Of a DNA stretch of 64,000 nt, positions 26,502 to 64,000 are shown piece by piece. This DNA is from Candidatus Levyibacteriota bacterium (lineage in GTDB: Bacteria > Patescibacteriota > Microgenomatia > Levybacterales > UBA12049), in NCBI GenBank assembly GCA_963790825.1, contig CAWBPM010000002.1, forward strand, positions 686,980 to 750,979, read 5' to 3'. The number at the start of each line of letters is the position of its first letter. Position 1 is the first letter of the stretch. The position numbers and the translations under genes were made by a program. Under the pieces are notes generated by a model that saw only the letters and a program-made list of their open reading frames with translations, did no database searches and was not told the DNA's origin.

Positions 26502-26599
26502 TATTCAGTAACTTGTATTATGTATCATGCATAACTACAAAAAAAACTCACCCACTCCTTTATACTTAATACAAAATACCTTATACTTAATACAAATCT

Positions 26600-44826: not shown

Positions 44827-44931
44827 TTTTCAGTTTCTAATTTTTAATTTTCATTGAATGAATTAATTTTTAAACATTTAGTAATTGATTATTGATTGAG
44901 AATTGATAATTCTCCTGAAAGGAGGTGTATT

Positions 44932-45327: not shown

Positions 45328-46416
45328 TATATTACCTCGTCAATTATTATCTGAAAAATATTTTTGATAAAAGGCGAGGTAATATTGTATAAATACTGTT
45401 ATTCCTCTTCCCTATCTTCAAATTTGCCTCTTGGTAGATATAGTTAATTATCAGTCAATATCTTGTATATTTCTTTATATTATTATTCCAAGTAATGTAA
45501 TATTTATTGAGTAAAATTATGCAGCAATTTGTCTAAGCCTGTATTTCAGTCTTTCAGGCTTATAAAATCGTATTAGATCAGCCTGACTCTCTCAATTTTT
45601 CTGAACTATACTTTTTTAGCTGTCCTTATTAGGTATTTTTAGCCTTTATTTCCCATAATTAAAGAAATATCCATGTTTATACCTACTATAAATCGTGTCT
45701 CTGTGAAAACTCAAAAAATCAGAAAATTGCGAAAGATCCGTTTAGTTCAATTATTTGTTCATTTTCTGCTGGTTTTTATCTAATCTAAGACATAGGATGA
45801 CCAAAAGTACCACAAAAAACTGTTCAGCGCTCCCCCAAATAATTCCCGAAAAACTCTTTGCAGCGTTTATGTGAAAATTCGGTAAAAACTTAATTCCCGA
45901 AAACTATCTTGTCATTTTGGGAGGACTGAAAGCTATTTTGTCATGCTGGAGCAAAGCGATAGCATCTTCTTAATGAGAGACTCTATCGCCACATTCAGTT
46001 TACATGAACGTGACTCCAGAATAACATGACTAGCACTTATTTTATATTACAGTCTTGTCTTAGTAGCGAGAGATAAAATACATCTTTCCCTAAACGACGC
46101 GTCCTAGGGCATCCTGGAGGTTTTTAGCTTCGAAATTATTGTAGATTTTTGTAGTTTAACCGCTTTTTGAAAAGACTTTTACGAAATCCGCCTTCCTTCA
46201 TATGTTTTTCCTTCAATGAGGTTATAAGTTTATCTATCAGATAATTCGTCTATTTCTCTTATCTCCCCTATCTCCTTAAGGTGTTCCTGTTAACGGGCCT
46301 GCCCCGTTACTGGTCATCCTGGCCCCTAGGTCTTTAGTCTAGGGATCTAAGGACTTGACCAGGATTTACAACTTGATTCTGGAGTCGTCGCGTTTCTTCT
46401 CCCCAGAATGACGATA

Positions 46417-49400
46417 CTACGGTGAACCAGTAATGGGGGCGAAGTTTACTGCACCACCACCATTGTAGAGTAGTTTTACTTGTAAGGGGGTCAGGACATA
46501 ATTAAAGATTCGCGCGTCATCAATCTGGCCTGGGAAATTATCAAATGCTGGCCAGCCAGCCACTTGACCTATTTGAAGGTCTACGTTGTTTACTATTGAT
46601 CCACCTGATAAAGCATCTCCCGTGTACCTCTGCTGTTGTAGTACTCCGTCGGTATAAAGTGTAATTCCGGAGGAGAGCCCCGATCCGTTATATGTCGCTA
46701 CTATATGATGCCACTGTCCATCGCTTACAATCTTCATATCTTCCTTACAAGTCTCGTGACTCACATCATGCGTTACACAAAACTCTATATCTCCGAGTCC
46801 GGAATCAGCCATCAGAAAGGCGTATCCTTTTACGGAACCGTCCATTTTATTTACTATATATGTATTTGCACTACTGGAGGTTTTGATCCAAGCGGAAATC
46901 GAGAAGCTGTTAGTATATTCGAAATTAAATAATGGCGATTTTCCTACGTCTACATAATCATCAATCCCATCGAAGTTTAGACTGGAATTAAATTTACCGT
47001 TTCGTCCGTTGTACCATGCAGTCGCTCCACTAGCTATGCAAGTCCCGACTGAATCCTGGTGTCCTGTTCCCCCACCCGTACCGATTGTAATCGTCCCGTC
47101 ATTGCCAAAGCCTGAATTATCATGCGCCACAGTACCCTGGCACTCGTCAAATTTCCACCAACCTACCGGTCCTCCCCGGTTGTAGTCCCAGGCTATTTGA
47201 GCCGGTGTTCTGGCATAGTTATAGAGTTTAACAGAGTCGATAGATCCATTAAAAGCGCCTAATCCATCACCACTATTGCCAATCTTCAAGTTATAACTTG
47301 TATCTGAGTAACGTGTACCTGAACTATCTCCTTGATTACCATATGTAATTTCCCGTCCGTTAACATATATATGTACATTTGATGAGGAACCTGTACCTGC
47401 TGTCCCATTCCAAGTTACTTCAATATATTGCCACTGGTTCAATTTTATAGCATTACTCACACCGTTAACTTCCAAATGATCTGTACCAAAATCTACAGCG
47501 AACATTATCGTGTTCGTATACCCGATACTTGCACCAGTCGCAAGATATAAACCCCATCCTTTATAAGGCAAGGGGCTGCTGTCTACAGTCTGATGTTTAC
47601 CAATAATATAGTTTCCATAAGTAGCATTAACACTTTTGGGATAAATCCACGCACTGGCAGTAATTGCGGGAAGGTTATTGATACTACTTGCATGAGCTAC
47701 ACTTACATTGTCATCCAATCCGTTGAAATTTCCCGCTCCGTTATATTTTCCCGCTACCCAGTGAGCAGAGCCTGTCCCGGTCCACGTTCCGTTATTTCCG
47801 TTTCCGGAGATATCATTTACAATTGAACCGTATCTCTCGTCAAAATTCCATTCCCCTACAGGCGGATTACACATGGAAGAATCTCCGGGGACACAGTAGG
47901 TTCCTGAGGCGGAGAAACCGCTTTGTGAATTGGTATAAAGCGCCTGTATTTCATCTGCAGAAAGAGCCCGGTTATAGATACGTACTTCATCGATGGAACC
48001 GGGGAAATAAGAAGATGCTGTCCAACCGTCAAAACCGATATTGGTCGGCCAGCCGGTGAGATTGACTCCCGATGCACTGGAAATATCTAACGTACCTTTA
48101 GCTACGCCGTCAACATATGATGTGGCTAAACCGCTTCTGTTAAAAGTTACAGCTATATGATGCCATTTATTATCTCGCAGATCGTACCCGCTATCATTTT
48201 TCTCGACAAAGGGGCCGCCACTGGGATAAATTCCATAATCAAGAGCTCCGCCTGAAACCTGAAAACGGAATCTAATAGTTCCTTCGTAACTTATAATACT
48301 TTGATAATTTGCAGCGCTTGCGGTTTTAATCCAAGCTGAAAGCGTAAAGCTATTGGTACCGATAGAAAGACCGTTTGCACTGACATACTGACTCGTTCCG
48401 TTAAAACTCCCTGCATTACCGTATTTTCCCACTACCGGTGAATTACTGCTAAAACTATTTCCTGTTCCGTTAATATTATTCCCGCTGCTGTCTTTTACTT
48501 CCCCTGCCGTTCCATTCCACGAGAGCAGTGGTTCATCCATCTTCCAATACCCCACCAATCCATTGGTTAGAGTACTGGAGTAAGCTCCTAAGACTGTAGC
48601 AGAGTTGTGGTTATAATCCATCTGGATTTCCGAGGAAGTTAAGATATAATTATAGAATTTTAAATCATCTATTGCCCCATAAAAATAACTATCACTCCCA
48701 TTTCGTGAACCTATACTATAATTTGAAGCAACTGTTGTCGTGTCACCACCATCATTTGCCGTTACTTTTAGCTTTCCATCAACATATGCATAGATTTTAT
48801 TACCTGGATCTCGGACACAAGCGACATAATGCCATTTATTGTCACGTAAATCTACTGTATCACGTGCATAATAGTCAGTCGGATTATTGTAATATTCACA
48901 AGATAATAATCCATTATACAGATATGCAGATATAGGTTCTATTGTACTAGAATTCCCTTTATAGAATATTCTTTCATATGTATTGCCGGATACAACTGCT
49001 CGGATCCAAGCTGAAACTGTATACGCATTTGTATTTATTGAGCCTGTACTCGCAAGGCTAATATAATTACTTGAACCATTAAAGTTCACAGCTCTACCAA
49101 ATTTACCGTCGTTTATCCAGGTTGCACCACTTATATTTCCGTTCCATGTGGCGCCTCCGTTTCCTGCATTGTTCGCAGTGGTTCCGTAGCCTTCATCAAA
49201 CTTCCAATACCCAATAGGTCCTGACCTTCCTCCGCCAACTGAAACAGTCGATGCTCCCCCGTTCATATCCTGGATGATTTGTTTTTGCGAGATAGCGTAG
49301 TTATAGATACGGACGTCATCAATTATACCCATCCACCGATAATTATTTTGAATTGACCCAATCTCTAGTGAGTTTGAAGTAGTAGATGTCCCAGTAAGAA

Positions 49401-51693
49401 TTGCTGATCCCGCAAGTATGCCATTTGAATAAACACTAACGGTAGTACCTTTTCTGACCATTGTTAGATATTGCCATTGATTATATAAAGGTCCAGTACC
49501 GGATGCCGGAGTTATGGTTGCGGTACTTAATCCTGCATAAACGTCATATGTATTCCCAGTTGTAAATAGATTGAGACCATATTCACAGTTTGCAGCACCA
49601 TTATCTTTGCAGAAAATTTGCTCTGATACGAATTGTGCAGCATCTGTATTATAAGTCCATGCACTGACAGTAAAATCGCCACCACCAAGTTCTATATTGC
49701 TTTTGTCAGGTATACTTACATAATTATCCGTTCCGTTGAAATTTCCTCCCCAGCCATATTTTCCCTGTTTCCATTGACTTCCCAGAGTTCCCTGCCAAGT
49801 TCCATTATTTCCATAACCTGATTTATCTGTCAAAGTTGAACCCGTTGCATCCTCAAAGTTATAATACGCTACCGGTCCTGGGGCATAGTTATATAAATTT
49901 TGTATGTCCTGCTGTGATAGAATACGATTATAGATACGCACTTCGTCGATTGACCCCTTCCACCACTCATTATAAAGACCGCATAGAGTATAACCTGGCC
50001 CACTACATTGTGCTCCGATAGTATAATTAATAGTTGTGTTGTTTGGAGCACAAGCTGCAGTCATTTTTAACACTCCGTCAACATATACTTCTACGTTTTT
50101 TCCATCATAGGTATTAACCCAGAAATGCCAATTGCCGTCGCTAACTGATGCGCCGGAATCATAATCATTGGTTCCTTGACAGAATGCTCCGGCATCCCCA
50201 CCAACCATTTCCATCTGCCAACCGTGAACCCCGCCGCCATCTTCGGCGCTAAATACCTCCGCTAAAGCTTTTTTTGTAGTTTTTACCCACGCGCTTGAGG
50301 TAAGAACGCTCCCAACATTAAGACTACTGGAATTAGGTATGCCTACAAAGTTATCAACCCCGTCAAATTGTCCGGCATTACCGAATTTCCCCGGACTTCC
50401 CGAATAGGCTTTACTTTTGGTCGGGCCTTGGGCTGTCCCGTTATTGCCATTACCGGATGAATCAATAACTTCATTTAGTGTTCCGCTCCAAGTCGCTTCA
50501 TCCATCTTCCAGTACCCAACGAGTCCGTTATTCAAAGCTGAGAATTGGTTATTGGTCGCAACTCCCATCACTGCACCTGCGCCTTTTGCGCTTCCCCGGG
50601 AATTATAATCGGCCTTCACCTGCGCGTCAGACCGGGCGTAGGGGTAGATCTTCACTTCATCGAGTCTACCATTATAAAGTAGTGACGGCCCTGTTGAACT
50701 GCCAAAATATACCTGATTAAACGTATGTAACGATCCGGATTGCGAAACAGACGTAGCGTTCGGAAGTCCGTTGAGATAAAGACGGACATTCGAACCGTCA
50801 TACGTCACTGATACGAAATACCACTGGTTAGCTGAGATTGTAGAATTTGTAGTAATACCTACTACACTATTACTGGCATTTCTCACATAACAATCAATCT
50901 GATTAGTGGCGTCAAACTGACAATAAACAATACCTTGGGAGCTGCCGCTGTCATAACCTACGACGTGCGCAGTCCAACTGCTCCAGTTAGGCGCGGCTTT
51001 AAACCAGTAGCTCAACGTCACGCCACTAAAAGACGGATAGGAATAAGATGATGCTAGCGCATAACTTGAGCTTCCGTTAAATGACAAACATTTTCCGCTG
51101 ACACACTGGTCCTCTGTCTGCCAGGAAGGAGATGTGGTACCACTCAATGTGCCATCGTTGTGGTTAATTGTATTGTCATGCACCGTTGTACCATACCCTT
51201 CATCAAATTTCCAGTAGGCCACTGGCTGGCCGAATGAACCCATGTAAACGCCTGGATTTGCGAAATTGTACCAACCGACATCTTGTGACCATACATAACC
51301 GGAAAATGCTCCTGATTGTAGGTCAATCCTTACATTACTGTTGTTGTTACTAAAGTATAAATATTCTCCCGAATTCATTATGTATGCCTTTCCGCTCACC
51401 ACTCCGTTACCCAAGTTCAGGGTTACCGGCCCTGATGGATTATCTGTTGAACCGAATGCTACCCAGCCTAAATCTTCTGAAAAAGCATATCCAGAAAAAA
51501 CACCCGTATTAGTGTCAATTGTGACGTTGCTGTTGTAATTGGTGAAGTCCAGATACGCTCCGGTATTAGCAGCAGTCGCCTTACCGGTGACTTTTACAAT
51601 TGAGGCAAAGGCAGGAGAGGCTGATGCAAGGAAAAATCCTCCTGTCAGAAATAGCAAACATAACAAAATAAGCCGTTTAACTTTGACTCCCAT
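46417..51693 (-). CDS. giant secreted protein with multiple LamG-like (Laminin_G_3 / concanavalin-A-like) repeats
   Basis: About 1760 aa; N-terminal signal/TM (LILLCLLFLTGGFFLASASPAFA); at least 8 repeats, each ending in the Laminin_G_3 signature G(S/R)(I/L)DE(V/A)(R/K)IY(N/P)…(L/A)(S/T)..(E/Q)I. The ORF track starts at a TTG at 51729; the ATG at 51693 is more likely. Confidence 0.8.
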   Translation of the reverse strand: MGVKVKRLILLCLLFLTGGFFLASASPAFASIVKVTGKATAANTGAYLDFTNYNSNVTIDTNTGVFSGYAFSEDLGWVAFGSTDNPSGPVTLNLGNGVVSGKAYIMNSGEYLYFSNNNSNVRIDLQSGAFSGYVWSQDVGWYNFANPGVYMGSFGQPVAYWKFDEGYGTTVHDNTINHNDGTLSGTTSPSWQTEDQCVSGKCLSFNGSSSYALASSYSYPSFSGVTLSYWFKAAPNWSSWTAHVVGYDSGSSQGIVYCQFDATNQIDCYVRNASNSVVGITTNSTISANQWYFVSVTYDGSNVRLYLNGLPNATSVSQSGSLHTFNQVYFGSSTGPSLLYNGRLDEVKIYPYARSDAQVKADYNSRGSAKGAGAVMGVATNNQFSALNNGLVGYWKMDEATWSGTLNEVIDSSGNGNNGTAQGPTKSKAYSGSPGKFGNAGQFDGVDNFVGIPNSSSLNVGSVLTSSAWVKTTKKALAEVFSAEDGGGVHGWQMEMVGGDAGAFCQGTNDYDSGASVSDGNWHFWVNTYDGKNVEVYVDGVLKMTAACAPNNTTINYTIGAQCSGPGYTLCGLYNEWWKGSIDEVRIYNRILSQQDIQNLYNYAPGPVAYYNFEDATGSTLTDKSGYGNNGTWQGTLGSQWKQGKYGWGGNFNGTDNYVSIPDKSNIELGGGDFTVSAWTYNTDAAQFVSEQIFCKDNGAANCEYGLNLFTTGNTYDVYAGLSTATITPASGTGPLYNQWQYLTMVRKGTTVSVYSNGILAGSAILTGTSTTSNSLEIGSIQNNYRWMGIIDDVRIYNYAISQKQIIQDMNGGASTVSVGGGRSGPIGYWKFDEGYGTTANNAGNGGATWNGNISGATWINDGKFGRAVNFNGSSNYISLASTGSINTNAYTVSAWIRAVVSGNTYERIFYKGNSSTIEPISAYLYNGLLSCEYYNNPTDYYARDTVDLRDNKWHYVACVRDPGNKIYAYVDGKLKVTANDGGDTTTVASNYSIGSRNGSDSYFYGAIDDLKFYNYILTSSEIQMDYNHNSATVLGAYSSTLTNGLVGYWKMDEPLLSWNGTAGEVKDSSGNNINGTGNSFSSNSPVVGKYGNAGSFNGTSQYVSANGLSIGTNSFTLSAWIKTASAANYQSIISYEGTIRFRFQVSGGALDYGIYPSGGPFVEKNDSGYDLRDNKWHHIAVTFNRSGLATSYVDGVAKGTLDISSASGVNLTGWPTNIGFDGWTASSYFPGSIDEVRIYNRALSADEIQALYTNSQSGFSASGTYCVPGDSSMCNPPVGEWNFDERYGSIVNDISGNGNNGTWTGTGSAHWVAGKYNGAGNFNGLDDNVSVAHASSINNLPAITASAWIYPKSVNATYGNYIIGKHQTVDSSPLPYKGWGLYLATGASIGYTNTIMFAVDFGTDHLEVNGVSNAIKLNQWQYIEVTWNGTAGTGSSSNVHIYVNGREITYGNQGDSSGTRYSDTSYNLKIGNSGDGLGAFNGSIDSVKLYNYARTPAQIAWDYNRGGPVGWWKFDECQGTVAHDNSGFGNDGTITIGTGGGTGHQDSVGTCIASGATAWYNGRNGKFNSSLNFDGIDDYVDVGKSPLFNFEYTNSFSISAWIKTSSSANTYIVNKMDGSVKGYAFLMADSGLGDIEFCVTHDVSHETCKEDMKIVSDGQWHHIVATYNGSGLSSGITLYTDGVLQQQRYTGDALSGGSIVNNVDLQIGQVAGWPAFDNFPGQIDDARIFNYVLTPLQVKLLYNGGGAVNFAPITGSP

Positions 51694-51771
51694 ATTATAA
51701 ATATTATAACTTTTCCTTTTGCTTGACAAGCAAGGGTAAAGAAATTAGTATAAAAGGGAAAGTAAAATAAT

Positions 51772-52650
51772 ATGAAAATGGAAAAAATCAAATCATACTT
51801 CATAAATCACATTATGAAAAAGCTCACATTCAGAAAGATAATACTACTATGTTGTGCACTTTGTCTGGTGATCAGTGGCATATTTTACTTCTATACCCGT
51901 GTTTTCGGGGAACAGTCCGGCTCCTCTCCCGATTCCTTGACTACATCACGTCTGAAGACTGTTTCGAATGCAGTTACTTCTCTGAGTTACGGTGCTACCA
52001 CAGCCGGTACATGGGGAGACTGGGGAAGTATGTGGAACAGAACCTATTCAGCAGCACAGGGACAGTTTAACGACGCAAAAGCTAAAGGTAATATGGAAGC
52101 AGGTAGTGGCACAGGAGGCCTTTCTGGTTTTACTCAAGCATTAGGAGGAGTTGATGATTACAACAATAATGGAGGAATGCCTTCCGATACGTATACCAGC
52201 GGGACTTGGACAGCTTGCAATGCCGGTAATAGTTATTGTAATACAAGTAGAAGCGTAGCGGAAAAACAGGACCCCAATACCGGTCTGGTCTGGTCAGCGC
52301 AAATTTCAGCTTCTGCCACCTGGTTCGTCGCAAATAACTGTGTACCTGGCACATGTACGTCTAACGGACAAGCAGGCTGTGTCTGTACGAAGCAAACCGG
52401 AGGAAGCAAAACAGGTTGTGAGGCATATGATGACGGACTCTGGCGTCTTCCTTCCCAGAAAGAGCTGGAGCAGTCCTATATTGACGGATCCAACAGTAAT
52501 TTAACTAATCCTAATTTCAATTACGTGTCTTCTACTACTGAAAGCACGGGTACACAGTATGCGTGGTACATAAAACAAAGCACTGGCAACGCGGACAACT
52601 ATACAAACGCCACTAAGACATTAACTTTCGCTGCAAGATGCGTACGCTGA
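51772..52650 (+). CDS. DUF1566 (Lcl C-terminal domain)-containing membrane-anchored protein, paralog 1
   Basis: 292 aa; N-terminal TM anchor, conserved GEQSGSSPDS, then the DUF1566 pattern DPNTGLVWS…GCEAYDDGLWRLPSQKELEQSYIDGS…AWYIK…ARCVR (the terminal RCVR is characteristic). Confidence 0.7.
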   Translation: MKMEKIKSYFINHIMKKLTFRKIILLCCALCLVISGIFYFYTRVFGEQSGSSPDSLTTSRLKTVSNAVTSLSYGATTAGTWGDWGSMWNRTYSAAQGQFNDAKAKGNMEAGSGTGGLSGFTQALGGVDDYNNNGGMPSDTYTSGTWTACNAGNSYCNTSRSVAEKQDPNTGLVWSAQISASATWFVANNCVPGTCTSNGQAGCVCTKQTGGSKTGCEAYDDGLWRLPSQKELEQSYIDGSNSNLTNPNFNYVSSTTESTGTQYAWYIKQSTGNADNYTNATKTLTFAARCVR

Positions 52651-52653
52651 GTT

Positions 52654-53508
52654 ATGAAAAAGGTTACAAAATATATTAAAAATAAATTTGTAAGTAAATT
52701 GATAATCCGTAAGGCATTCGTTCTGGGGTGTGTTCTTTTTTTAACCGGAATGTGTATATTTTATTATCCTGCCCGTGTTTTTGCAGAACAATCCGGTTCC
52801 TCTCCTGATTCAGGTGTAAATTCGAGACTTTTAACGATTTATAATGCATTAACTGCCCTAAATTACGGCAGTACCACAGCTGGAACATGGGGAGACTGGG
52901 GAAATATGTGGAACCGTGTCTACTCAGCAGCACAGGGACAGTTTAACGACGCAAAAGCGAAAGGCATGAAATCCGGTAGCGGCACAGGAGGCCTCTCAGC
53001 TTTCACTCAGGTACTAGGAGGAGTTGATGATTATAACAATGGCGGAGGGACGCCTTCTAATTCGTATACCAGCGGAACATGGACAACCTGTAATGCCGGC
53101 AACAGTTATTGCGGAACAGGCAGGAGTGTAGCGGAAAAACAGGATCCAAATACCGGTCTTGTTTGGTCACCGCGACTCAGTGGCCTTACGAACTGGTACA
53201 AGGCAAATAACTGTTCTAATAGCGATGGCAATCCCTGTGTAAAGAGAATGAGCGCCCAAACAGGTTGTGAGGGTTATGATGATCTTAACTGGCGTCTTCC
53301 TTCCCAGAAAGAACTGATGCAATCTTATATTGACGGATCCAACAGTAATTTATCCAATCCTAGTAACAATTACTGGTCGTCTAATACCAGCAGCACAGGT
53401 ACTACGTATGCTTGGTACATAGACCTGAACAACGGCTACGCGGCCAACTACAACACTGCCAATGGTAAAAGTTGGGGTCTCTCCGTCTATGCAAGGTGTG
53501 TACGCTAG
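52654..53508 (+). CDS. DUF1566 (Lcl C-terminal domain)-containing membrane-anchored protein, paralog 2
   Basis: 284 aa; same architecture and roughly 60% identical to the upstream gene (…DPNTGLVWSPRL…GCEGYDDLNWRLPSQKELMQSYIDGS…AWYIDL…ARCVR); 3-nt spacing from paralog 1. Confidence 0.7.
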   Translation: MKKVTKYIKNKFVSKLIIRKAFVLGCVLFLTGMCIFYYPARVFAEQSGSSPDSGVNSRLLTIYNALTALNYGSTTAGTWGDWGNMWNRVYSAAQGQFNDAKAKGMKSGSGTGGLSAFTQVLGGVDDYNNGGGTPSNSYTSGTWTTCNAGNSYCGTGRSVAEKQDPNTGLVWSPRLSGLTNWYKANNCSNSDGNPCVKRMSAQTGCEGYDDLNWRLPSQKELMQSYIDGSNSNLSNPSNNYWSSNTSSTGTTYAWYIDLNNGYAANYNTANGKSWGLSVYARCVR

Positions 53509-53741
53509 ATTTACTCTATAATTATTAAATTTGAATAACTGTTTCAGTTTTATAAATTCTGCCTCTATATTTAGTATATAAGTAGTATTGCTTAGCAAAC
53601 AAGAACTATGAATGATAATTGCTAAATTATTTCATTGTTAAATTGTTTCGCTTTTCTCCATATATATTTTAATAATTCGCCGCTACTTCGTAGCTAGTCC
53701 CCTTGGGAGATAGTAATTTAATAATGAGTGGACTGTCTTCG

Positions 53742-56700: not shown

Positions 56701-59700
56701 ATGATTTGTGAGTTTCCGGTAATTTGACCTATTAAGGTATGTGCTCCCAGTTGTAAGGTGCCGGAAGAGGCAGAAATTATGTGGTTACCGGTACCTGTGG
56801 AGAAAGTAAGTCCCGCACCATTTCCCGTTAGGGTAAGACCGGTGGTACCGGACGAGGTGATATCCGTTCCTTGGATAGTGCTACTAGTATTAATCGTACC
56901 AAAACCAGTTGTAATAGATCCCGCGGAGAGAGCACTGACTGTTGTCAGGGAGGAGGAGGTAACACCGGTTCCCAGGGTTGTACCCGAAAGAACATCGGTA
57001 CTATTAATCTTGAAGGTAGAGCCGGTTGAGAGATTAAGATTACCGGCAATATCCAGTTTCTGGGTTGGAAGACTGGTACCGATTCCTACGTTACCACTCT
57101 GAGTGATAACAAATCTACTAAGTCCCGAGGAAGAAGCGGTAAAGAGATCTCCCTTCCCTGAGTTATTAACTACCAATGCAGCATAGGCAGTAGTCGCTGC
57201 TATGGAAGCAACCGGATTTATTCCTTCTGCGGTTGTACCATAGATATGGAAATTAGCGGAGGAAGTACTAACTCCACCCAGGAGTAGATCCTGAGTAATA
57301 TTAGATTGTATAATAGTTCCTCCCGAACTGACGAATCCTCCGCATGTTCCCCAAGTAGGAGCAGCACTACTGTTACTATTCAAGCATTGTCCGGTTGTTC
57401 CGACTGCCAAAGTTCCGCCTAAGACTCCGGTTGCCGAGTAGTACGGGAGAGCGTATTGGGCAGCTACACTATTGTTGAATCCTGTACCGCCGTACTGACT
57501 GGTGATAAGTGTTGCGTTCCAGGTACCGGAGGTGAGTGTTCCGACTGTTGTCAGGGAGGAGGAGGTAACACCGGTTCCCAGGGTTGTTGAGGAGAGAACG
57601 CTGTTGCCGGCGATCTGGTAAGCACCGCTGACACTGTTAAGGTTACCCGAGTGGTCAAGGGTAAAGACCGTAGTACCGGATGCACTGGCAGTCAGGATAT
57701 TCTGGTTGCCGGTTTCATTAAGTGAGACTAAGGCTTTACCGGTTTGTTTCCCGTTGACTTCCAGCTGGAAGTTAGTGGTAGCATTACCGCCGAGAATGAG
57801 TTTATCAGTATTGGTAGCGGCATTTCCGGGTGAGATGACGTTTGAGGTATCTGTCCAGTAGTTGGTAGTTCCGGCACAGTTACCGGTTGAGAGACAGAGA
57901 GTACCGCTGGCATCCGGAATAGTAAGGGTTCTGGTATTTCCGGTAGTAATTCCTGAGAGCTGGAAGGCAAGCTTTTTAGTACTGTCTAAATTATTCTGGA
58001 AGAGAGTGGAGCTATCGGTTAGGGTTTTATTGGTTAGAGTGTCTGTACTGGCACGTCCGACAATAGTATCGGACACGGACGGGAAAGTTAAGGTGGTACC
58101 ATCGGTTCCGGCAAAGGTAAGGTTATTGTTGACAGTCAGGATTTTCCCGGCAGCAATGGAAAGAGTATTAGTACCGTTATTGGTGATTGTTAAACCATTA
58201 ACTGTTCCTGAGGCAGTAAGGTTACCCGAGTGGTCAAGGGTAAAGACCGTAGTACCGGATGCACTGGCAGTCAGGATATTCTGGTTGCCGGTTTCATTAA
58301 GTGAGACTAAGGCTTTACCGGTTTGTTTCCCGTTGACTTCCAGCTGGAAGTTAGTGGTAGCATTACCGCCGAGAATGAGTTTATCAGTATTGGTAGCGGC
58401 ATTTCCGGGTGAGATGACGTTTGAGGTATCTGTCCAGTAGTTGGTAGTTCCGGCACAGTTACCGGTTGAGAGACAGAGAGTACCGCTGGCATCCGGAATA
58501 GTAAGGGTTCTGGTATTTCCGGTAGTAATTCCTGAGAGCTGGAAGGCAAGCTTTTTAGTACTGTCTAAATTATTCTGGAAGAGAGTGGAGCTATCGGTTA
58601 GGGTTTTATTGGTTAGAGTGTCTGTACTGGCACGTCCGACAATAGTATCGGACACGGACGGGAAAGTTAAGGTGGTACCATCGGTTCCGGCAAAGGTAAG
58701 GTTATTGTTGACAGTCAGGATTTTCCCGGCAGCAATGGAAAGAGTATTAGTACCGTTATTGGTGATTGTTAAACCATTAACTGTTCCTGAGGCAGTAAGG
58801 TTACCCGAGTGGTCAAGGGTAAAGACCGTAGTACCGGATGCACTGGCAGTCAGGATATTCTGGTTGCCGGTTTCATTAAGTGAGACTAAGGCTTTACCGG
58901 TTTGTTTCCCGTTGACTTCCAGCTGGAAGTTAGTGGTAGCATTACCGCCGAGAATGAGTTTATCAGTATTGGTAGCGGCATTTCCGGGTGAGATGACGTT
59001 TGAGGTATCTGTCCAGTAGTTGGTAGTTCCGGCACAGTTACCGGTTGAGAGACAGAGAGTACCGCTGGCATCCGGAATAGTAAGGGTTCTGGTATTTCCG
59101 GTAGTAATTCCTGAGAGCTGGAAGGCAAGCTTTTTAGTACTGTCTAAATTATTCTGGAAGAGAGTGGAGCTATCGGTTAGGGTTTTATTGGTTAGAGTGT
59201 CTGTACTGGCACGTCCGACAATAGTATCGGACACGGACGGGAAAGTTAAGGTGGTACCATCGGTTCCGGCAAAGGTAAGGTTATTGTTGACAGTCAGGAT
59301 TTTCCCGGCAGCAATGGAAAGAGTATTAGTACCGTTATTGGTGATTGTTAAACCATTAACTGTTCCTGAGGCAGTAAGGTTACCCGAGTGGTCAAGGGTA
59401 AAGACCGTAGTACCGGATGCACTGGCAGTCAGGATATTCTGGTTGCCGGTTTCATTAAGTGAGACTAAGGCTTTACCGGTTTGTTTCCCGTTGACTTCCA
59501 GCTGGAAGTTAGTGGTAGCATTACCGCCGAGAATGAGTTTATCAGTATTGGTAGCGGCATTTCCGGGTGAGATGACGTTTGAGGTATCTGTCCAGTAGTT
59601 GGTAGTTCCGGCACAGTTACCGGTTGAGAGACAGAGAGTACCGCTGGCATCCGGAATAGTAAGGGTTCTGGTATTTCCGGTAGTAATTCCTGAGAGCTGG

Positions 59701-62700
59701 AAGGCAAGCTTTTTAGTACTGTCTAAATTATTCTGGAAGAGAGTGGAGCTATCGGTTAGGGTTTTATTGGTTAGAGTGTCTGTACTGGCACGTCCGACAA
59801 TAGTATCGGACACGGACGGGAAAGTTAAGGTGGTACCATCGGTTCCGGCAAAGGTAAGGTTATTGTTGACAGTCAGGATTTTCCCGGCAGCAATGGAAAG
59901 AGTATTAGTACCGTTATTGGTGATTGTTAAACCATTAACTGTTCCTGAGGCAGTAAGGTTACCCGAGCGGTCAAGGGTAAAGACCGTAGTACCGGATGCA
60001 CTGGCAGTCAGGATATTCTGGTTGCCGGTTTCATTAAGAATAGTAAGGGCTTTCCCCGTTACTTTCCCTTCAACATCGAGTTTTGATACCGGAGTTATCC
60101 CTACGCCAAGCAGTTTATTAGTACTGTCAAAGTACAAGGTAGAATCAGACGAGATAGTACTACTACCAGTAAAGAAAGCCAACTGGTTGGCAACTCCACC
60201 TGAAGCTGTAACTCCGCTCGTACCGGTACAAGATCCCCAAGAAGGAACAGCAGTGACACCTCCCGATACCAGGCAGGAACCGATTGCTACATCCGAGAGT
60301 TTCCCCCAGGTATTTGTTCCCGATCCGTAGAGAAGATCTCCGGTGGTAACGGTTGTCTGTCCTGTACCGCCGTAGAGTGTACCTATAGCACTTCCCTGCC
60401 AAGTACCAGTACCAATTGTCCCGACCGTTGTCAGGGAGGAGGAGGTAACACCGGTTCCCAGGGTTGTTGAGGAGAGAACGCTGTTACCGGCGATCTGGTA
60501 AGCACCGCTGACACTGTTAAGGTTACCCGAGTGGTCAAGGGTAAAGACCGTAGTACCGGATGCACTGGCAGTCAGGATATTCTGGTTGCCGGTTTCATTA
60601 AGTGAGACTAAGGCTTTACCGGTTTGTTTCCCGTTGACTTCCAGCTGGAAGTTAGTGGTAGCATTACCGCCGAGAATGAGTTTATCAGTATTGGTAGCGG
60701 CATTTCCGGGTGAGATGACGTTTGAGGTATCTGTCCAGTAGTTGGTAGTTCCGGCACAGTTACCGGTTGAGAGACAGAGAGTACCGCTGGCATCCGGAAT
60801 AGTAAGGGTTCTGGTATTTCCGGTAGTAATTCCTGAGAGCTGGAAGGCAAGCTTTTTAGTACTGTCTAAATTATTCTGGAAGAGAGTGGAGCTATCGGTT
60901 AGGGTTTTATTGGTTAGAGTGTCTGTACTGGCACGTCCGACAATAGTATCGGACACGGACGGGAAAGTTAAGGTGGTACCATCGGTTCCGGCAAAGGTAA
61001 GGTTATTGTTGACAGTCAGGATTTTCCCGGCAGCAATGGAAAGAGTATTAGTACCGTTATTGGTGATTGTTAAACCATTAACTGTTCCTGAGGCAGTAAG
61101 GTTACCCGAGTGGTCAAGGGTAAAGACCGTAGTACCGGATGCACTGGCAGTCAGGATATTCTGGTTGCCGGTTTCATTAAGTGAGACTAAGGCTTTACCG
61201 GTTTGTTTCCCGTTGACTTCCAGCTGGAAGTTAGTGGTAGCATTACCGCCGAGAATGAGTTTATCAGTATTGGTAGCGGCATTTCCGGGTGAGATGACGT
61301 TTGAGGTATCTGTCCAGTAGTTGGTAGTTCCGGCACAGTTACCGGTTGAGAGACAGAGAGTACCGCTGGCATCCGGAATAGTAAGGGTTCTGGTATTTCC
61401 GGTAGTAATTCCTGAGAGCTGGAAGGCAAGCTTTTTAGTACTGTCTAAATTATTCTGGAAGAGAGTGGAGCTATCGGTTAGGGTTTTATTGGTTAGAGTG
61501 TCTGTACTGGCACGTCCGACAATAGTATCGGACACGGACGGGAAAGTTAAGGTGGTACCATCGGTTCCGGCAAAGGTAAGGTTATTGTTGACAGTCAGGA
61601 TTTTCCCGGCAGCAATGGAAAGAGTATTAGTACCGTTATTGGTGATTGTTAAACCATTAACTGTTCCTGAGGCAGTAAGGTTACCCGAGTGGTCAAGGGT
61701 AAAGACCGTAGTACCGGATGCACTGGCAGTCAGGATATTCTGGTTGCCGGTTTCATTAAGCGAGACTAAGGCTTTACCGGTTTGTTTCCCGTTGACTTCC
61801 AGCTGGAAGTTAGTGGTAGCATTACCGCCGAGAATGAGTTTATCAGTATTGGTAGCGGCATTTCCGGGTGAGATGACGTTTGAGGTATCTGTCCAGTAGT
61901 TGGTAGTTCCGGCACAGTTACCGGTTGAGAGACAGAGAGTACCGCTGGCATCCGGAATAGTAAGGGTTCTGGTATTTCCGGTAGTAATTCCTGAGAGCTG
62001 GAAGGCAAGCTTTTTAGTACTGTCTAAATTATTCTGGAAGAGAGTGGAGCTATCGGTTAGGGTTTTATTGGTTAGAGTGTCTGTACTGGCACGTCCGACA
62101 ATAGTATCGGACACGGACGGGAAAGTTAAGGTGGTACCATCGGTTCCGGCAAAGGTAAGGTTATTGTTGACAGTCAGGATTTTCCCGGCAGCAATGGAAA
62201 GAGTATTAGTACCGTTATTGGTGATTGTTAAACCATTAACTGTTCCTGAGGCAGTAAGGTTACCCGAGCGGTCAAGGGTAAAGACCGTAGTACCGGATGC
62301 ACTGGCAGTCAGGATATTCTGGTTGCCGGTTTCATTAAGTGAGACTAAGGCTTTACCGGTTTGTTTCCCGTTGACTTCCAGCCTGAAGTTAGTCGTAGTT
62401 CCCGAGTCAGCCAGGAGGAGTGAATCGCTGGCTGTTGCCGGAGAGAGGGTAGTGGTATTTCTCTGGAAGTAATTGGTGCCCAGTCCGGTACAAGACGACC
62501 AGCTTGGTGCAGCAGTGGTATTGCCAACCAGACATTGTCCGGTTGTTCCGACTGCCAAAGTTCCGCCTAAGACTCCGGTTGCCGAGTAGTACGGGAGAGC
62601 GTATTGGGCAGCTGCACTATTGTTGAATCCTGTACCGCCGTACTGACTGGTGATAAGTGTTGCGTTCCAGGTACCGGAGGTGAGTGTTCCGACTGTTGTC

Positions 62701-64000
62701 AGGGAGGAGGAGGTAACACCGGTTCCCAGGGTTGTACCCGAAAGAACATCGGTACTATTAATCTTGAAGGTAGAGCCGGTTGAGAGATTAAGATTACCGG
62801 CAATATCCAGTTTCTGGGTTGGAAGACTGGTACCGATTCCTACATTACCACTCTGAGTGATAACAAATCTACTAAGTCCCGAGGAAGAAGCGGTAAAGAG
62901 ATCTCCCTTCCCTGAGTTATTAACTACCAGGGCAGCATAGGCAGTAGTCGCTGCTATGGAAGCAACCGGATTTATTCCTTCTGCGGTTGTACCATAGATA
63001 TGGAAATTAGCGGAGGAAGTACTAACTCCACCCAGGAGTAGATCCTGAGTAATATTAGATTGTATAATAGTTCCTCCCGAACTGACGAATCCTCCGCATG
63101 TTCCCCAAGTAGGAGCAGCACTACTGTTACTATTCAAGCATTGTCCGGTTGTTCCCATAGCAAGGGTTCCGCCTAAGACTCCGGTTGCCGAGTAGTACGG
63201 GAGAGCGTATTGGGCAGCTGCACTATTGTTGAATCCTGTACCGCCGTACTGACTGGTGATAAGTGTTGCGTTCCAGGTACCGGAGGTGAGTGTTCCGACT
63301 GTTGTCAGGGAGGAGGAGGTAACACCGGTTCCCAGGGTTGTTGAGGAGAGAACGCTGTTGCCGGCGATCTGGTAAGCACCGCTGACACTGTTAAGGTTAC
63401 CCGAGCGGTCAAGGGTAAAGACCGTAGTACCGGATGCACTGGCAGTCAGGATATTCTGGTTGCCGGTTTCATTAAGCGAGACTAAGGCTTTACCGGTTTG
63501 TTTCCCGTTGACTTCCAGCCTGAAGTTAGTCGTAGTTCCCGAGTCAGCCAGGAGGAGTGAATCGCTGGCTGTTGCCGGAGAGAGGGTAGTGGTATTTCTC
63601 TGGAAGTAATTGGTGCCCAGTCCGGTACAAGACGACCAGCTTGGTGCAGCAGTGGTATTGCCAACCAGACATTGTCCGGTTGTTCCGACTGCCAAAGTTC
63701 CGCCTAAGACTCCGGTTGCCGAGTAGTACGGGAGAGCGTATTGGGCAGCTGCACTATTGTTGAATCCTGTACCGCCGTACTGACTGGTGATAAGTGTTGC
63801 GTTCCAGGTACCGGAGGTGAGTGTTCCGACTGTTGTCAGGGAGGAGGAGGTAACACCGGTTCCCAGGGTTGTTGAGGAGAGAACGCTGTTACCGGCGATC
63901 TGGTAAGCACCGCTGACACTGTTAAGGTTACCCGAGTGGTCAAGGGTAAAGACCGTAGTACCGGATGCACTGGCAGTCAGGATATTCTGGTTGCCGGTTT
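53742..64000 (-). CDS. giant Gly/Thr/Ser/Asn-rich repetitive surface protein (over 3,400 aa; N-terminus lies beyond the window edge)
   Basis: Single open minus-strand frame from the stop at 53742 to the window end; the listed start at 63695 is only an in-frame TTG and upstream codons continue the repeat. Contains at least 10 near-identical 193-aa repeats and a higher-order repeat of about 380 aa; the non-repetitive C-terminal 600 aa has a coiled-coil-like segment followed by a beta-rich domain. Confidence 0.8.
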   Translation of the reverse strand, partial: TGNQNILTASASGTTVFTLDHSGNLNSVSGAYQIAGNSVLSSTTLGTGVTSSSLTTVGTLTSGTWNATLITSQYGGTGFNNSAAAQYALPYYSATGVLGGTLAVGTTGQCLVGNTTAAPSWSSCTGLGTNYFQRNTTTLSPATASDSLLLADSGTTTNFRLEVNGKQTGKALVSLNETGNQNILTASASGTTVFTLDRSGNLNSVSGAYQIAGNSVLSSTTLGTGVTSSSLTTVGTLTSGTWNATLITSQYGGTGFNNSAAAQYALPYYSATGVLGGTLAMGTTGQCLNSNSSAAPTWGTCGGFVSSGGTIIQSNITQDLLLGGVSTSSANFHIYGTTAEGINPVASIAATTAYAALVVNNSGKGDLFTASSSGLSRFVITQSGNVGIGTSLPTQKLDIAGNLNLSTGSTFKINSTDVLSGTTLGTGVTSSSLTTVGTLTSGTWNATLITSQYGGTGFNNSAAAQYALPYYSATGVLGGTLAVGTTGQCLVGNTTAAPSWSSCTGLGTNYFQRNTTTLSPATASDSLLLADSGTTTNFRLEVNGKQTGKALVSLNETGNQNILTASASGTTVFTLDRSGNLTASGTVNGLTITNNGTNTLSIAAGKILTVNNNLTFAGTDGTTLTFPSVSDTIVGRASTDTLTNKTLTDSSTLFQNNLDSTKKLAFQLSGITTGNTRTLTIPDASGTLCLSTGNCAGTTNYWTDTSNVISPGNAATNTDKLILGGNATTNFQLEVNGKQTGKALVSLNETGNQNILTASASGTTVFTLDHSGNLTASGTVNGLTITNNGTNTLSIAAGKILTVNNNLTFAGTDGTTLTFPSVSDTIVGRASTDTLTNKTLTDSSTLFQNNLDSTKKLAFQLSGITTGNTRTLTIPDASGTLCLSTGNCAGTTNYWTDTSNVISPGNAATNTDKLILGGNATTNFQLEVNGKQTGKALVSLNETGNQNILTASASGTTVFTLDHSGNLTASGTVNGLTITNNGTNTLSIAAGKILTVNNNLTFAGTDGTTLTFPSVSDTIVGRASTDTLTNKTLTDSSTLFQNNLDSTKKLAFQLSGITTGNTRTLTIPDASGTLCLSTGNCAGTTNYWTDTSNVISPGNAATNTDKLILGGNATTNFQLEVNGKQTGKALVSLNETGNQNILTASASGTTVFTLDHSGNLNSVSGAYQIAGNSVLSSTTLGTGVTSSSLTTVGTIGTGTWQGSAIGTLYGGTGQTTVTTGDLLYGSGTNTWGKLSDVAIGSCLVSGGVTAVPSWGSCTGTSGVTASGGVANQLAFFTGSSTISSDSTLYFDSTNKLLGVGITPVSKLDVEGKVTGKALTILNETGNQNILTASASGTTVFTLDRSGNLTASGTVNGLTITNNGTNTLSIAAGKILTVNNNLTFAGTDGTTLTFPSVSDTIVGRASTDTLTNKTLTDSSTLFQNNLDSTKKLAFQLSGITTGNTRTLTIPDASGTLCLSTGNCAGTTNYWTDTSNVISPGNAATNTDKLILGGNATTNFQLEVNGKQTGKALVSLNETGNQNILTASASGTTVFTLDHSGNLTASGTVNGLTITNNGTNTLSIAAGKILTVNNNLTFAGTDGTTLTFPSVSDTIVGRASTDTLTNKTLTDSSTLFQNNLDSTKKLAFQLSGITTGNTRTLTIPDASGTLCLSTGNCAGTTNYWTDTSNVISPGNAATNTDKLILGGNATTNFQLEVNGKQTGKALVSLNETGNQNILTASASGTTVFTLDHSGNLTASGTVNGLTITNNGTNTLSIAAGKILTVNNNLTFAGTDGTTLTFPSVSDTIVGRASTDTLTNKTLTDSSTLFQNNLDSTKKLAFQLSGITTGNTRTLTIPDASGTLCLSTGNCAGTTNYWTDTSNVISPGNAATNTDKLILGGNATTNFQLEVNGKQTGKALVSLNETGNQNILTASASGTTVFTLDHSGNLTASGTVNGLTITNNGTNTLSIAAGKILTVNNNLTFAGTDGTTLTFPSVSDTIVGRASTDTLTNKTLTDSSTLFQNNLDSTKKLAFQLSGITTGNTRTLTIPDASGTLCLSTGNCAGTTNYWTDTSNVISPGNAATNTDKLILGGNATTNFQLEVNGKQTGKALVSLNETGNQNILTASASGTTVFTLDHSGNLNSVSGAYQIAGNSVLSSTTLGTGVTSSSLTTVGTLTSGTWNATLITSQYGGTGFNNSVAAQYALPYYSATGVLGGTLAVGTTGQCLNSNSSAAPTWGTCGGFVSSGGTIIQSNITQDLLLGGVSTSSANFHIYGTTAEGINPVASIAATTAYAALVVNNSGKGDLFTASSSGLSRFVITQSGNVGIGTSLPTQKLDIAGNLNLSTGSTFKINSTDVLSGTTLGTGVTSSSLTTVSALSAGSITTGFGTINTSSTIQGTDITSSGTTGLTLTGNGAGLTFSTGTGNHIISASSGTLQLGAHTLIGQITGNSQIITGLGTINGLAITANTGTITTGTWNATLITSQYGGTGFNNSAAAQYALPYYTSTGVLGGALAMGTTAQCLLANTSAAPTWGACDTSPGVNLWNQVNGTISPKNATVDLLLGGISTPSATFHVYGSTLAGTSPVASIAANTSYSALVVSNSGKGDLFTASVSGATRFVVNNSGWVGIGTSIPGAALQISGSDTSSPGSEIWITNTGTNGRAWRIGDGPYVANGTFAITDQTAAANRFAIDSSGDIGINSSSPNAILDVRGVGNTTLSGITPVASISGKTSAAALVVDNSGNGDIFTASVSGATRFVIQNDGSIIQNSNASTGIADMLNANSLTTGYGLDISSTSTGLTTNGALGYFSYNPGSATTSTGDVLDLNVGANASGANGSIANIFNIMDNGSTDFSVSQSQILGNLPVQFTAPGDTTMAYDLDFTNPTASFIKSSSALTLQAGDLYTSSDLTLGTYNSGNVIVNSQAFSVNGAATISGQLTVQPTYKVGIGTATPGLALDVQDNQSATASARIYNLNSTSGVGNSGPVGLLVQLGYTAITNNSEDHFINLLDGNGNLRGSAQANGTGVTWKTSGIADLAEYLSKDPNETIPWGSILCEDTNGIVHPCGSSNTSGDIVGVASEYPGFVGGQDQGNASITIGLSGEVNTLVSTDNGPIQAGDYITLSNTQGVGVKATTFGKVVGKALQSYSDSGVGTIEVLVGPTLFAPSTFITASGNVYTSTANNSNSGYVATVSEPPAQSSQTEPETLGATDEARLTNLENTTSQQGSEITSLSGQVNNLSDQENQLASQSAFLTSMLQSPLLSSLIASGSGTFADVGSLDMQDATVSGQLEVLGRTTLNDLGVTGTITAGVTTIDGLNGTIDTISQPLQLQSEGLANIELENNSVVIKTNGDITTQGVLTAHKVNIDNSDSASASLGDVVIKAGGTQAVVTTTALTAKSRIFTTSDTPVPVGSKANDATSFTITLSKSQASDVKVSWWIVN
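57550..60050 (-). repeat. tandem array A of near-identical 579-bp intragenic repeats (about 4.3 units)
   Basis: Identical alternative-frame ORF shadows spaced exactly 579 bp apart (plus 57862/58441/59020/59599; minus 57728/58307/58886/59465) show roughly 99-100% DNA identity between units. Confidence 0.75.
60450..62350 (-). repeat. tandem array B of the same 579-bp unit (about 3.3 units)
   Basis: Shadow ORFs at plus 60742/61321/61900 and minus 60608/61187/61766 are identical to those of array A; the arrays are separated by a 380-aa block that itself recurs near 63400+. Confidence 0.75.

Follow-up and report, generated by a model that had tools for sequence, protein, structure and literature searches.

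Large proteins with laminin G (LamG) or concanavalin-type domains, along with other proteins of more than 1,500 amino acids (aa), count among the known features of Patescibacteria, and host attachment is assumed to be their role (PMC13059738, PMC12911398). Cell-encoded adhesins that resemble phage fibres are known in Bdellovibrio (PMC10769870). Proteins with the DUF1566 domain, here called Lcl_C, form the CLec2 class of targets of diversity-generating retroelements (DGRs) (PMC5758913); the candidate phyla radiation (CPR) is enriched in such elements (PMC8144416). The stretch of DNA studied here, 64 kb of contig CAWBPM010000002.1 (the window; searches said to be made in the window cover those 64 kb), carries after the ribosomal protein gene rplL four genes for large proteins, all of them present where the initial annotation had placed them (Table 1). 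They encode a secreted LamG protein, two Lcl_C proteins and a giant fibre-like protein.

The best matches of the rplL product in a set of species-representative genomes are metagenome-assembled genomes of Candidatus Levybacteria or Patescibacteria with 74% identity. This confirms the CPR-like organism that had been suggested, and the source appears to be Levybacteria-like. The region is probably a cell-surface gene island of this bacterium, made up of two independently inherited modules: the fibre giant on the one hand, and the LamG protein with the Lcl_C pair on the other. Module A is the giant gene, on the minus strand from 53742 to past 64000, and module B spans 46417-53508. A role at the surface or in host interaction can sensibly be proposed for all four proteins, which probably mediate attachment; this agrees with what has been published on large surface proteins of Patescibacteria (PMC13059738, PMC12911398).

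The giant resembles phage tailspikes and fibres with C-terminal chaperones (phi29 gp12 with Peptidase_G2, endosialidase and T5 pb1 with Peptidase_S74, and K1 lyase) in a DxAEY(F) motif that aligns to Asp692 of gp12 and in a sandwich of the K1-lyase_C type. Its relatives swap the G2-type for an S74-type chaperone (L085 and L088; loci and proteins used for comparison carry L and P numbers), and identity between strains is mosaic (P0238). Unlike phage fibres it is chromosomal, conserved beside rplL and three to five times longer; its shaft matches no phage family, its Pfam matches are sub-threshold, and it has no virion-attachment domain but would be anchored by an N-terminal helix-turn-helix (HTH) and a transmembrane (TM) segment. 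The MAT fibres of Bdellovibrio bacteriovorus would be comparable as cell-encoded, phage-fibre-like adhesins of a bacterium that recognises other bacteria (PMC10769870), and the predicted fold of Lcl_C in the window matches the C-terminal domain of the MAT tip protein Bd2740 (8oks). They differ from the giant in size, in anchoring (HTH and TM here) and in host envelope (CPR, Gram-positive-like), and the likeness is one without demonstrated sequence homology.

Legionella Lcl and the CLec2 proteins of DGRs such as LdtA (PMC5758913) agree with the Lcl_C pair in the domain itself, which scores above threshold, in the best fold match (8q4e) and in an RCVR scaffold. However, the window proteins lack the collagen-like region of Lcl and the lipobox of LdtA, have no template repeat (TR), reverse transcriptase (RT) or Avd within 64 kb, and hold a middle domain of about 120 aa without a known family. 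The LamG protein is like the LamG or concanavalin-A-like proteins of Patescibacteria (PMC13059738, PMC12911398) in its signal peptide, its tandem Laminin_G_3 domains, its length above 1,500 aa and its CPR genome, and unlike them in an N-terminal module (the N-module) that also occurs in fn3, Big_13 and purple-acid-phosphatase-N proteins and is linked in the genome to Lcl_C genes. In the literature no description was found of an architecture of MerR-type HTH, TM helix, giant fibre and tailspike autochaperone, or of its position after rplL in Levybacteria-like genomes, and none of the N-module or its linkage to Lcl_C.

The giant gene next to rplL and its relatives

The giant gene has counterparts at the same place in other genomes. 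In L001 and L003 the gene directly after rplL, and convergent with it, is a giant open reading frame (ORF) of at least 1,642 and at least 2,359 aa, respectively, that runs off the contig. In L081, a 721-kb JGI contig on which PAP2, NTP_transferase, secE, nusG, rplK, rplA, rplJ and rplL follow one another as in the window, a complete ORF of 3,572 aa converges on rplL. The C-terminal 350-535 aa of the window protein are 45%, 33% and 32% identical to the rplL-convergent products of L001, L003 and L081, the last of these figures applying to the last 535 aa. The giant gene is an ancestral neighbour of rplL that is conserved in the clade. No LamG or Lcl_C gene lies between rplL and the fibre gene in L001, L003 and L081, and among the loci compared module B stands there only in the window genome. 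Conservation of the locus at this position, raised as a question in the initial annotation, thus holds for the giant gene in these relatives but not for the LamG/Lcl_C block, and the simplest history is that the block entered the space between rplL and an older fibre gene in the lineage of the window.

The locus had also been taken to occupy the place where rpoB and rpoC normally follow rplL. The gene rpoB was traced by its invariant motif GDKxxxRHGNKG on the same strand downstream of rplL in 80 retrieved loci. The motif was found in 56 of them, which bears out the general rule that rplKAJL is followed by rpoB. It was absent after rplL from all eight CPR loci with enough flank (L001-L005, L013 from WWE3, L052 from Peribacteria and L081), and in the window no rpoB lies within about 5 kb downstream of rplL, the largest upstream ORF being 760 aa. 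An rplL without rpoBC is therefore a trait of the lineage, and normal for it; nothing has been displaced at the locus. The absence of rpoBC is a lineage property and no sign of insertion or misassembly, which removes a false lead.

Within the window the frame of the giant gene is uninterrupted from 53742 to the edge. The ORF is rich in Thr (17.6%), Gly (12.2%), Ser (11.5%) and Asn (9.2%), and the protein of more than 3,400 aa with near-identical repeats that had been described is confirmed, with 3,418 codons. Its 579-bp repeat is present in seven copies, identical at 579 of 579 positions except for one copy at 578/579. Identical repeats of this kind would point to a shaft that was recently expanded or homogenised. 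The shaft repeats have no match in Pfam, PHROGs, NCBIfam or PDB, and the part of the giant visible in the window contains no hydrophobic segment.

The last 599 aa of the giant match Pfam Peptidase_G2 (PF11962; E 4.9e-4, 20 bits, cutoff 25) and K1-lyase_C (E 3.1e-3, 18.4 bits, cutoff 27). Among 11 aligned family members, Peptidase_G2 is found in five (best 4e-8), K1-lyase_C in four (best 1.5e-6) and Peptidase_S74 in one. The L081 orthologue exceeds both gathering thresholds, with 30.5 bits for Peptidase_G2 and 27.4 bits for K1-lyase_C (cutoff 27), and P0321 reaches 28.9 bits for Peptidase_G2. A profile of the fibre family matches the chaperone D4 of the tailspike Dpo31 (1.6e-3) and the phi29 gp12 autochaperone 3gqh (9.9e-3). 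This alignment begins at DxAEYF, the motif just behind the cleavage site of gp12, with D-l-A-E-Y-f placed on residue 1 of 3gqh, which is gp12 Asp692, and likewise on Dpo31 D4; the A-D-L-A-E-Y of the window giant is at aa 3012.

An AlphaFold2 (AF2) model of the C-terminal 599 aa has a mean predicted local distance difference test score (pLDDT) of 52 and is confident at residues 201-340 and 531-599, with pLDDT 80-92 over the latter. DSSP assigns helices to residues 368-405, 409-415 and 418-425, where pLDDT is below 50. The top Foldseek matches of the model in PDB are C-terminal domains of Pam1, K64-1, Sf6 and R2 pyocin, all with E of at least 5e-3. In BFVD, which holds predicted viral structures, there are 43 matches at E<=1e-3 that include K1-lyase_C, S74 and tail proteins, the best of those cited being a 'preneck appendage protein' (E 1.1e-8, 27% identity). 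For the fibre C-terminus nothing was obtained from PHROGs, NCBIfam or a single-sequence PDB search, and a single-protein query of IMG/VR gave no confirmed relatives. The window giant has no match to Peptidase_S74 (PF13884), which the related fibres of L085 and L088 have instead. The tail-fibre type of C-terminus expected in the initial annotation is thus supported by the profile, Pfam-family and fold matches of the last 599 aa. Of the tail-fibre and S74 models named there, S74 is absent and the phage-like C-terminus is of the G2 and K1-lyase_C type, sub-threshold in the window protein.

The C-terminal fibre fragment P0238, from another assembly, is near-identical to the window in the coiled-coil or stalk segment and, over the last 406 aa, about 60% identical overall to window 53742-56000. 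The sequence around its G2-like core is GLDYAENY, compared with GIADLAEY in the window. This pattern appears to be mosaic recombination as in the receptor-binding proteins of phages.

The start of the giant can be approached through P0239, a 1,159-aa fragment from another assembly, in which aa 861-1152 agree at 98.6% identity with the first 292 residues of the giant that the window shows. Its MerR HTH (aa 12-48; 45.4 bits, cutoff 28.2) leads through a linker into a single strongly hydrophobic stretch, a TM segment at about aa 172-199. Provided that P0239 runs collinear with the ORF of the window, the giant would be about 4,280 aa long and would start with a MerR HTH and a TM segment. Similar arrangements are found in relatives. 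The 3,572-aa ORF of L081 combines MerR (1.4e-13), a TM helix, Peptidase_G2 and K1-lyase_C, and the 2,521-aa giant of L088 (WWE3) has an HTH-TM start with MerR and Peptidase_S74. The N-terminal segment of a 5,510-aa stop-to-stop ORF in L090 is MerR-like, with 42% identity to the N-terminus of L081, and the C-terminus of this ORF is of the type seen in L081; P0321 joins MerR_1 and Peptidase_G2 in a single chain of 1,377 aa. The complete relative in L089 (3,986 aa) has a TM helix and no HTH.

Of 90 proteins homologous to the shaft region, 15 have MerR Pfam domains, and several of these bear the NCBI name 'MerR family transcriptional regulator'. It is therefore reasonable to ask whether the giant is mainly a membrane-tethered transcription factor or sensor of the MerR type, whose ectodomain senses contact or is processed while the HTH regulates, adhesion being secondary; this is unlikely. 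In its favour, L081, L088 and P0239 begin with an HTH that exceeds the Pfam threshold and then have a single TM helix, and MerR-type segments are likewise present in L090 and P0321. A DNA-binding N-terminus, a single TM helix and an extracytoplasmic domain are also found in ToxR/CadC-type regulators and in eukaryotic MYRF/MrfA, and the latter provides a precedent for joining these to a tailspike autochaperone, Peptidase_S74 (PMC3828593). However, the HTH of the giant is of the MerR type, its fibre ectodomain would have about 4,000 aa, and the domain order is unlike that of MYRF: the chaperone stands outside the cell at the far end, some 4,000 aa away from the HTH, which makes a MYRF-like release impossible and means that cleavage cannot free the HTH. 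Nor does the layout of soluble MerR-type regulators, with a C-terminal dimerisation coiled coil and an effector domain in about 130-300 aa, agree with what is found in P0239, L081 and L088, where a linker, a TM helix and thousands of residues outside the cell come after the HTH. The complete relative in L089 dispenses with the HTH, neither an operator nor a target came to light, and the window does not reach the N-terminus of its giant gene. The label 'MerR family transcriptional regulator' misleads when it is given to proteins of 1,000-5,500 aa with most of their length outside the cell.

The length of the giant and its perfect repeats might partly be an assembly artefact, through a wrong copy number or a chimeric ORF, which is rather unlikely. 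Seven identical 579-bp units would favour such an error, and short-read assemblies of near-identical genes do break in the repeats, as P0239 and P0238 are fragments ending in repeat sequence. The frame, however, stays open over 10.26 kb, and independent relatives have uninterrupted ORFs of 3,572, 3,986 and 5,510 aa. The source contig of 751 kb suggests a long-read or curated assembly, and what is at stake is the copy number alone; the gene exists either way.

A short repeated DNA element was seen in translated form in L088, both in a 283-aa ORF (9011-9862) and in the linker of the giant at its N-terminus (8205-8804), with motifs such as VGAGFIRPS...EGRMNATPTL. Copies lie at several sites in that locus, and it is possibly a CPR element resembling repetitive extragenic palindromes (REP-like) inside coding sequence.

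The Lcl_C pair, the LamG protein and the N-module

The two Lcl_C proteins score 41.1 (protein 1) and 53.5 bits (protein 2) against Lcl_C (PF07603; cutoff 34.9) and are paralogues with 63% identity. The region of about 120 aa in the middle, which belongs to no known family, is highly conserved between them, and the C-terminal 20-40 aa diverge most. They had been described as a tandem pair of membrane-anchored DUF1566 proteins. The domain and the paralogy stand, but the anchor is in doubt, as the hydrophobic N-terminal segment ends in ...RVFA|EQSGSS and so may instead be a signal peptide that is cleaved off. The AF2 model of protein 2 (44-sequence alignment, pLDDT 74) has as its best PDB fold match the C-terminal domain of Legionella Lcl, 8q4e (E 3.6e-4; TM-score 0.56 normalised to the target), followed by the tip of the Bdellovibrio MAT fibre, Yersinia InvE and animal C-type lectin domains. 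The C-terminal domain of both proteins would accordingly have a C-type-lectin-like fold.

Homologues with 46-54% identity to protein 1 are targets of DGRs. Of six Lcl_C homologue loci examined (L083-L088), four have a DGR variable region in the last 131-137 nt of the Lcl_C gene. Mismatches between variable region and TR fall on template adenines in 14 of 14 cases in L084, 15 of 16 in L086, 10 of 11 in L087 and 21 of 21 in L088. RVT_1 adjoins the TR in all four loci, and so does a bAvd gene except in L088. The C-terminal ...RCVR scaffold of the window proteins aligns with the variable regions of these homologues, and judged by them the pair would be of the DGR-target type. Hypermutation concerns the last 45 codons or so in the relatives, so the Lcl_C domain would be the ligand-binding tip.

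No TR-like copy of the 3' end of either Lcl_C gene is present anywhere in the window. A tblastn search of the window with four RTs and five Avd-like proteins of relatives found no DGR RT, and of Avd-like genes only a 34-aa remnant at 46145-46246; a Pfam scan of the large ORFs of the window found no DGR component. An origin of the differences between proteins 1 and 2 from one shared TR was ruled out, since they are spread throughout and are not confined to putative adenine positions, as in ordinary diverged paralogues.

Complete DGR cassettes were located at 7166-10900 in L084, 10001-12462 in L086, 8332-10960 in L087 and 10001-13256 in L088. Those of L084, L086 and L087 lie beside a protein of about 1,055 aa with N-module and Pur_ac_phosph_N and a MacB-type ABC transporter. 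Genes for a type IV secretion system (T4SS) pilin, a relaxase, a TrwB-like protein and a recombinase near the cassette in L084 and L087 suggest that a conjugative or integrative element carries it.

The LamG protein matches Laminin_G_3 (PF13385) in seven stretches (E 2.6e-163, 537.7 bits, cutoff 27.6), and seven domain-start and seven domain-end motifs were counted. A 1770-aa secreted protein with at least eight Laminin_G_3 repeats had been reported; the domain is right, but there are exactly seven, and the N-terminal 125 aa or so form a different module of twin repeats. The gene most likely starts at the ATG at 51693 because the database copy P0088, which is 100% identical, has 1758 aa. The N-terminus from this start is signal-peptide-like, MGVKVKRLILLCLLFLTGGFFLASASPAFA|S. 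A match to NCBIfam TafC is sub-threshold (245 bits against a cutoff of 410) and reflects the shared LamG domain only.

The twin-repeat N-module has no meaningful match in Pfam (only Gloverin, E 0.17) and no sequence match in PDB better than E 1.5. A search with it gave 940 cluster representatives at E<=1e-3, nearly all of them secreted multi-domain proteins that have the module at about residues 30-150. Its fusion partners in 55 proteins are fn3 (19), Pur_ac_phosph_N (14), Big_13 (14), CarboxypepD_reg (7) and LamG (4). All six Lcl_C loci have the N-module no more than 10 kb from the Lcl_C gene, whereas 21 other CPR loci, 285 kb in all, lack it (Fisher p 3.4e-6); the figures are 4/4 against 0/21 (p about 8e-5) when three similar DGR cassettes are counted once. 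These samples are small and uncorrected for kinship. The module is adjacent to Lcl_C in L083, is separated from it by a DGR cassette or a single gene in L084-L087, and in L088 is embedded in the neighbouring fibre protein. The association between LamG and Lcl_C genes is real and recurrent, and its conserved element is the N-module, not the LamG array. This suggests that the Lcl_C and N-module proteins may act together on the surface.

It is very unlikely that the four genes are one co-evolving attachment system in the rpoB/rpoC slot, as the initial annotation proposed when it treated them as a dedicated unit. They are contiguous and all of an exported or surface type, and a fibre gene is near Lcl_C in 3 of about 9 fibre loci: in the window, and within 10 kb with a chaperone-ended fibre in L085, which also has a 1,701-aa LamG giant, and in L088. 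On the other hand, no CPR relative examined has rpoBC after rplL, the fibres of L001, L003 and L081 abut rplL without LamG or Lcl_C, the fibre homologues of L082, L089 and L090 have neither as a neighbour, and the Lcl_C loci L083, L084, L086 and L087 have no fibre. Synteny already largely refutes the single system, and only the pairing of Lcl_C with the N-module recurs.

A degraded prophage or phage-tail-like element, with the giant simply a phage tail fibre, is highly improbable: the phage-type C-terminal domains of the giant and the matches of the LamG protein to PHROGs 'virion structural protein' families, which the LamG domain alone explains, stand against a locus that holds only the four genes, none of them phage-type (no systematic search for phage genes was made outside it), the lack of RT, Avd and TR in the window, of IMG/VR relatives and of a PHROG match for the fibre C-terminus, a position next to rplL kept across genomes with rplL merely 74% identical, and an N-terminal HTH and TM anchor that would be a cellular architecture.

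Coordinates, spacers and flanking genes

Table 1. Features of the locus, with positions and strand in the 64-kb window.
Feature	Position	Strand	Remarks
nusG	41740-42306	+	
rplK	42644-43069	+	
rplA	43131-43970	+	
rplJ	44236-44826	+	
rplL (L7/L12)	44896-45327	+	Pfam Ribosomal_L12 and Ribosomal_L12_N; final gene of the nusG-rplKAJL cluster, syntenic anchor
Non-coding spacer, rplL to LamG gene	45328-46416		1,089 bp
Putative remnant of a 23S_rRNA_IVP/four-helix-bundle (Avd-like) gene	46145-46246	-	34 codons, stops upstream
Secreted 7-LamG protein	46417-51693	-	1758 aa from ATG at 51693; mechanical ORF to TTG at 51729, 1770 aa
Twin-repeat N-module of the LamG protein	51223-51603	-	aa 31-157 of the 1758-aa form; GYAxSExxGW motifs; no described family
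Divergent spacer	51694-51771		78 bp; inverted repeat TTGCTTG-A-CAAGCAA at 51719-51733
Lcl_C/DUF1566 protein 1	51772-52650	+	292 aa; database copy P0016 starts 2 codons later; equivalent of the variable region about 52510-52647
Lcl_C/DUF1566 protein 2	52654-53508	+	284 aa; equivalent of the variable region about 53359-53505
Giant fibre gene, 3' 10.26 kb	53742-64000	-	3,418 codons and stop; 5' end past the window
C-terminal beta-sandwich, K1 capsule lyase/tailspike C-terminal domain-like	53748-53915	-	
Predicted long alpha-helix, coiled-coil-like	54267-54440	-	Between G2-like core and terminal domain
Peptidase_G2-like (phi29 gp12-type) autochaperone core	54801-55067	-	Motif A-D-L-A-E-Y; Asp codon 54960-54962
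Four-copy array of identical 579-bp (193-aa) repeats	57638-59953	-	Longest exact self-match 1,751 nt at offset 579
Three-copy array of the same 579-bp repeat	60518-62254	-	579/579, 579/579 and 578/579 identity to the reference copy

The noncoding stretch of about 1.1 kb reported after rplL is confirmed. It contains no stop-to-stop ORF of at least 50 aa, no Rfam match at E<=1 and no DNA similarity to the spacers of relatives. When the L081 gene at 12900-13424 was used in tblastn against the window only, it matched 46145-46246 with 50% identity over 34 aa (E 8e-6). Its intact counterpart in L081 likewise sits in the interval from rplL to the fibre gene, with unchanged orientation towards the fibre, and the stretch in the window may be a relic of an Avd-like gene, for which this evidence is weak. 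L081 has, between its fibre gene and rplL, three genes for four-helix bundles like 23S_rRNA_IVP or bAvd and one MerR/HTH_17 gene (12367-14369), and no RT was found in the 22 kb of L081 retrieved.

The LamG gene and the Lcl_C genes diverge from a shared region that had been given as 42 bp with a palindrome and an embedded TTGACA. The palindrome and the -35 sequence are there, but the spacer is 78 bp counted from the ATG at 51693. The palindrome TTGCTTGACAAGCAA at 51719-51733 is wholly inside it. On the plus strand TTGACA (51723-51728) and TAGTAT (51746-51751) are 17 bp apart, and on the minus strand TTGTCA and TAATAT have the same spacing. It is reasonable to regard the former as a candidate sigma-70-type promoter of the Lcl_C genes and the latter as one of the LamG gene, both assignments being consensus matches only. 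Promoter-like sites in the region number 32 against 21.9 ± 4.4 expected, which is a modest enrichment. As an operator or regulatory site the palindrome was rejected: it is single in the window, sites with at most 3 mismatches (6 against 2.6 expected) do not exceed chance, and the homologous Lcl_C genes lack it upstream. An imperfect palindrome, TTGCTTAGCAAACAA, is found at 53588-53602 in the 233-bp spacer between the convergent stops of the second Lcl_C gene and the giant; it has 3 mismatches to the promoter palindrome, which is not above chance.

The G+C content is 0.43-0.51 across the island (46000-64000) and 0.36-0.40 in the flanks, and the cumulative GC skew is lowest near 50-52 kb, from where it rises through the giant gene. 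The skewed amino-acid composition of the giant gene, not a replication origin or foreign DNA, is the likely cause of this pattern, and a composition rich in Gly, Thr, Ala and Ser accounts at least in part for the higher G+C of the island.

The window also contains a full-length 16S rRNA gene of 1,499 nt without intron (847-2345, minus strand). About 735 bp downstream of it is tRNA-Cys (36-111, minus strand) instead of tRNA-Ile/Ala and 23S; there is no 23S gene in the window, and the rRNA genes may be unlinked. A tRNA cluster Thr-Tyr-Thr-Trp precedes tufA/secE-nusG in many bacteria. Here it is found at 25376-26673, about 15 kb from nusG, so the usual gene order is disrupted on both sides of rplKAJL and not at rpoBC alone. 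The rplA product is unusually long, with 279 aa and a Pfam L1 match in two stretches, and in L081 a glycosyltransferase gene (GT4; 15632-16957) lies between rplA and rplJ. Further upstream the window encodes a 760-aa protein with Wzy_C (O-antigen-ligase-like) and tetratricopeptide repeats (TPR) at 18804-21086 and a weak Cohesin-domain protein at 21716-22882. A 760-aa Wzy_C/TPR protein is likewise encoded near the fibre homologue of L082 (9533-11815).

Proposed function and meaning

If the two modules are what they appear to be, the giant would begin with a cytoplasmic MerR-type HTH followed by one membrane helix, with the N-terminus inside. About 3,800 residues rich in Thr, Gly, Ser and Asn would be extracellular, and the seven 193-aa units are probably a shaft of variable length. 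By analogy with phi29 gp12 and endosialidase-type fibres, the C-terminal module (a G2-like core with DxAEY, a coiled coil and a K1-lyase_C-like sandwich) would nucleate trimerisation, and it may be cut off at Ala|Asp. The resulting long fibre, tethered by its N-terminal helix, might bind a partner cell or surface. Module B would contribute two divergent units, namely a Sec-secreted protein with the N-module and seven LamG domains, and two small Lcl_C proteins in tandem.

Several points weigh against this reading. The N-terminus of the giant is outside the window, and the fragment P0239 used in its place overlaps a repeated unit. The shaft repeats match no known family, so that 'trimeric fibre' is an analogy, and their copy number hinges on the quality of the assembly as the 579-bp units are perfectly identical. 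The window giant is itself sub-threshold for Peptidase_G2 (20 against 25 bits) and K1-lyase_C (18.4 against 27), and the assignment of its C-terminus depends on homologues and on an AF2 model with a mean pLDDT of 52. No DGR part is present within 64 kb, so that diversification of the two Lcl_C genes may not take place at all in this genome. The linkage of Lcl_C and the N-module shows that they are inherited together, which need not mean that they interact.

It is conceivable, although rather doubtful, that the giant represents an undescribed class of CPR proteins, in which a MerR HTH and a TM helix carry a phage-fibre-like appendage of about 4,000 residues that is both an attachment organelle and the contact-sensing input of a membrane-tethered transcription factor, and possibly a DNA tether. 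The Lcl_C and N-module exoproteins would then be a second, two-part tunable adhesin.

To our knowledge, how the ultra-small bacteria of the CPR recognise and hold host cells is largely unknown, and almost none of them has been cultured. The locus gives testable candidates for attachment. The first is a giant fibre conserved in the clade, with an assembly module of phage type and an unexpected MerR domain that would be cytoplasmic. The second is the small C-type-lectin proteins, whose ligand-binding surface is marked by the DGR hypermutation of their relatives. The third is the N-module, which is widespread, with its 940 cluster representatives, and genomically tied to Lcl_C genes.

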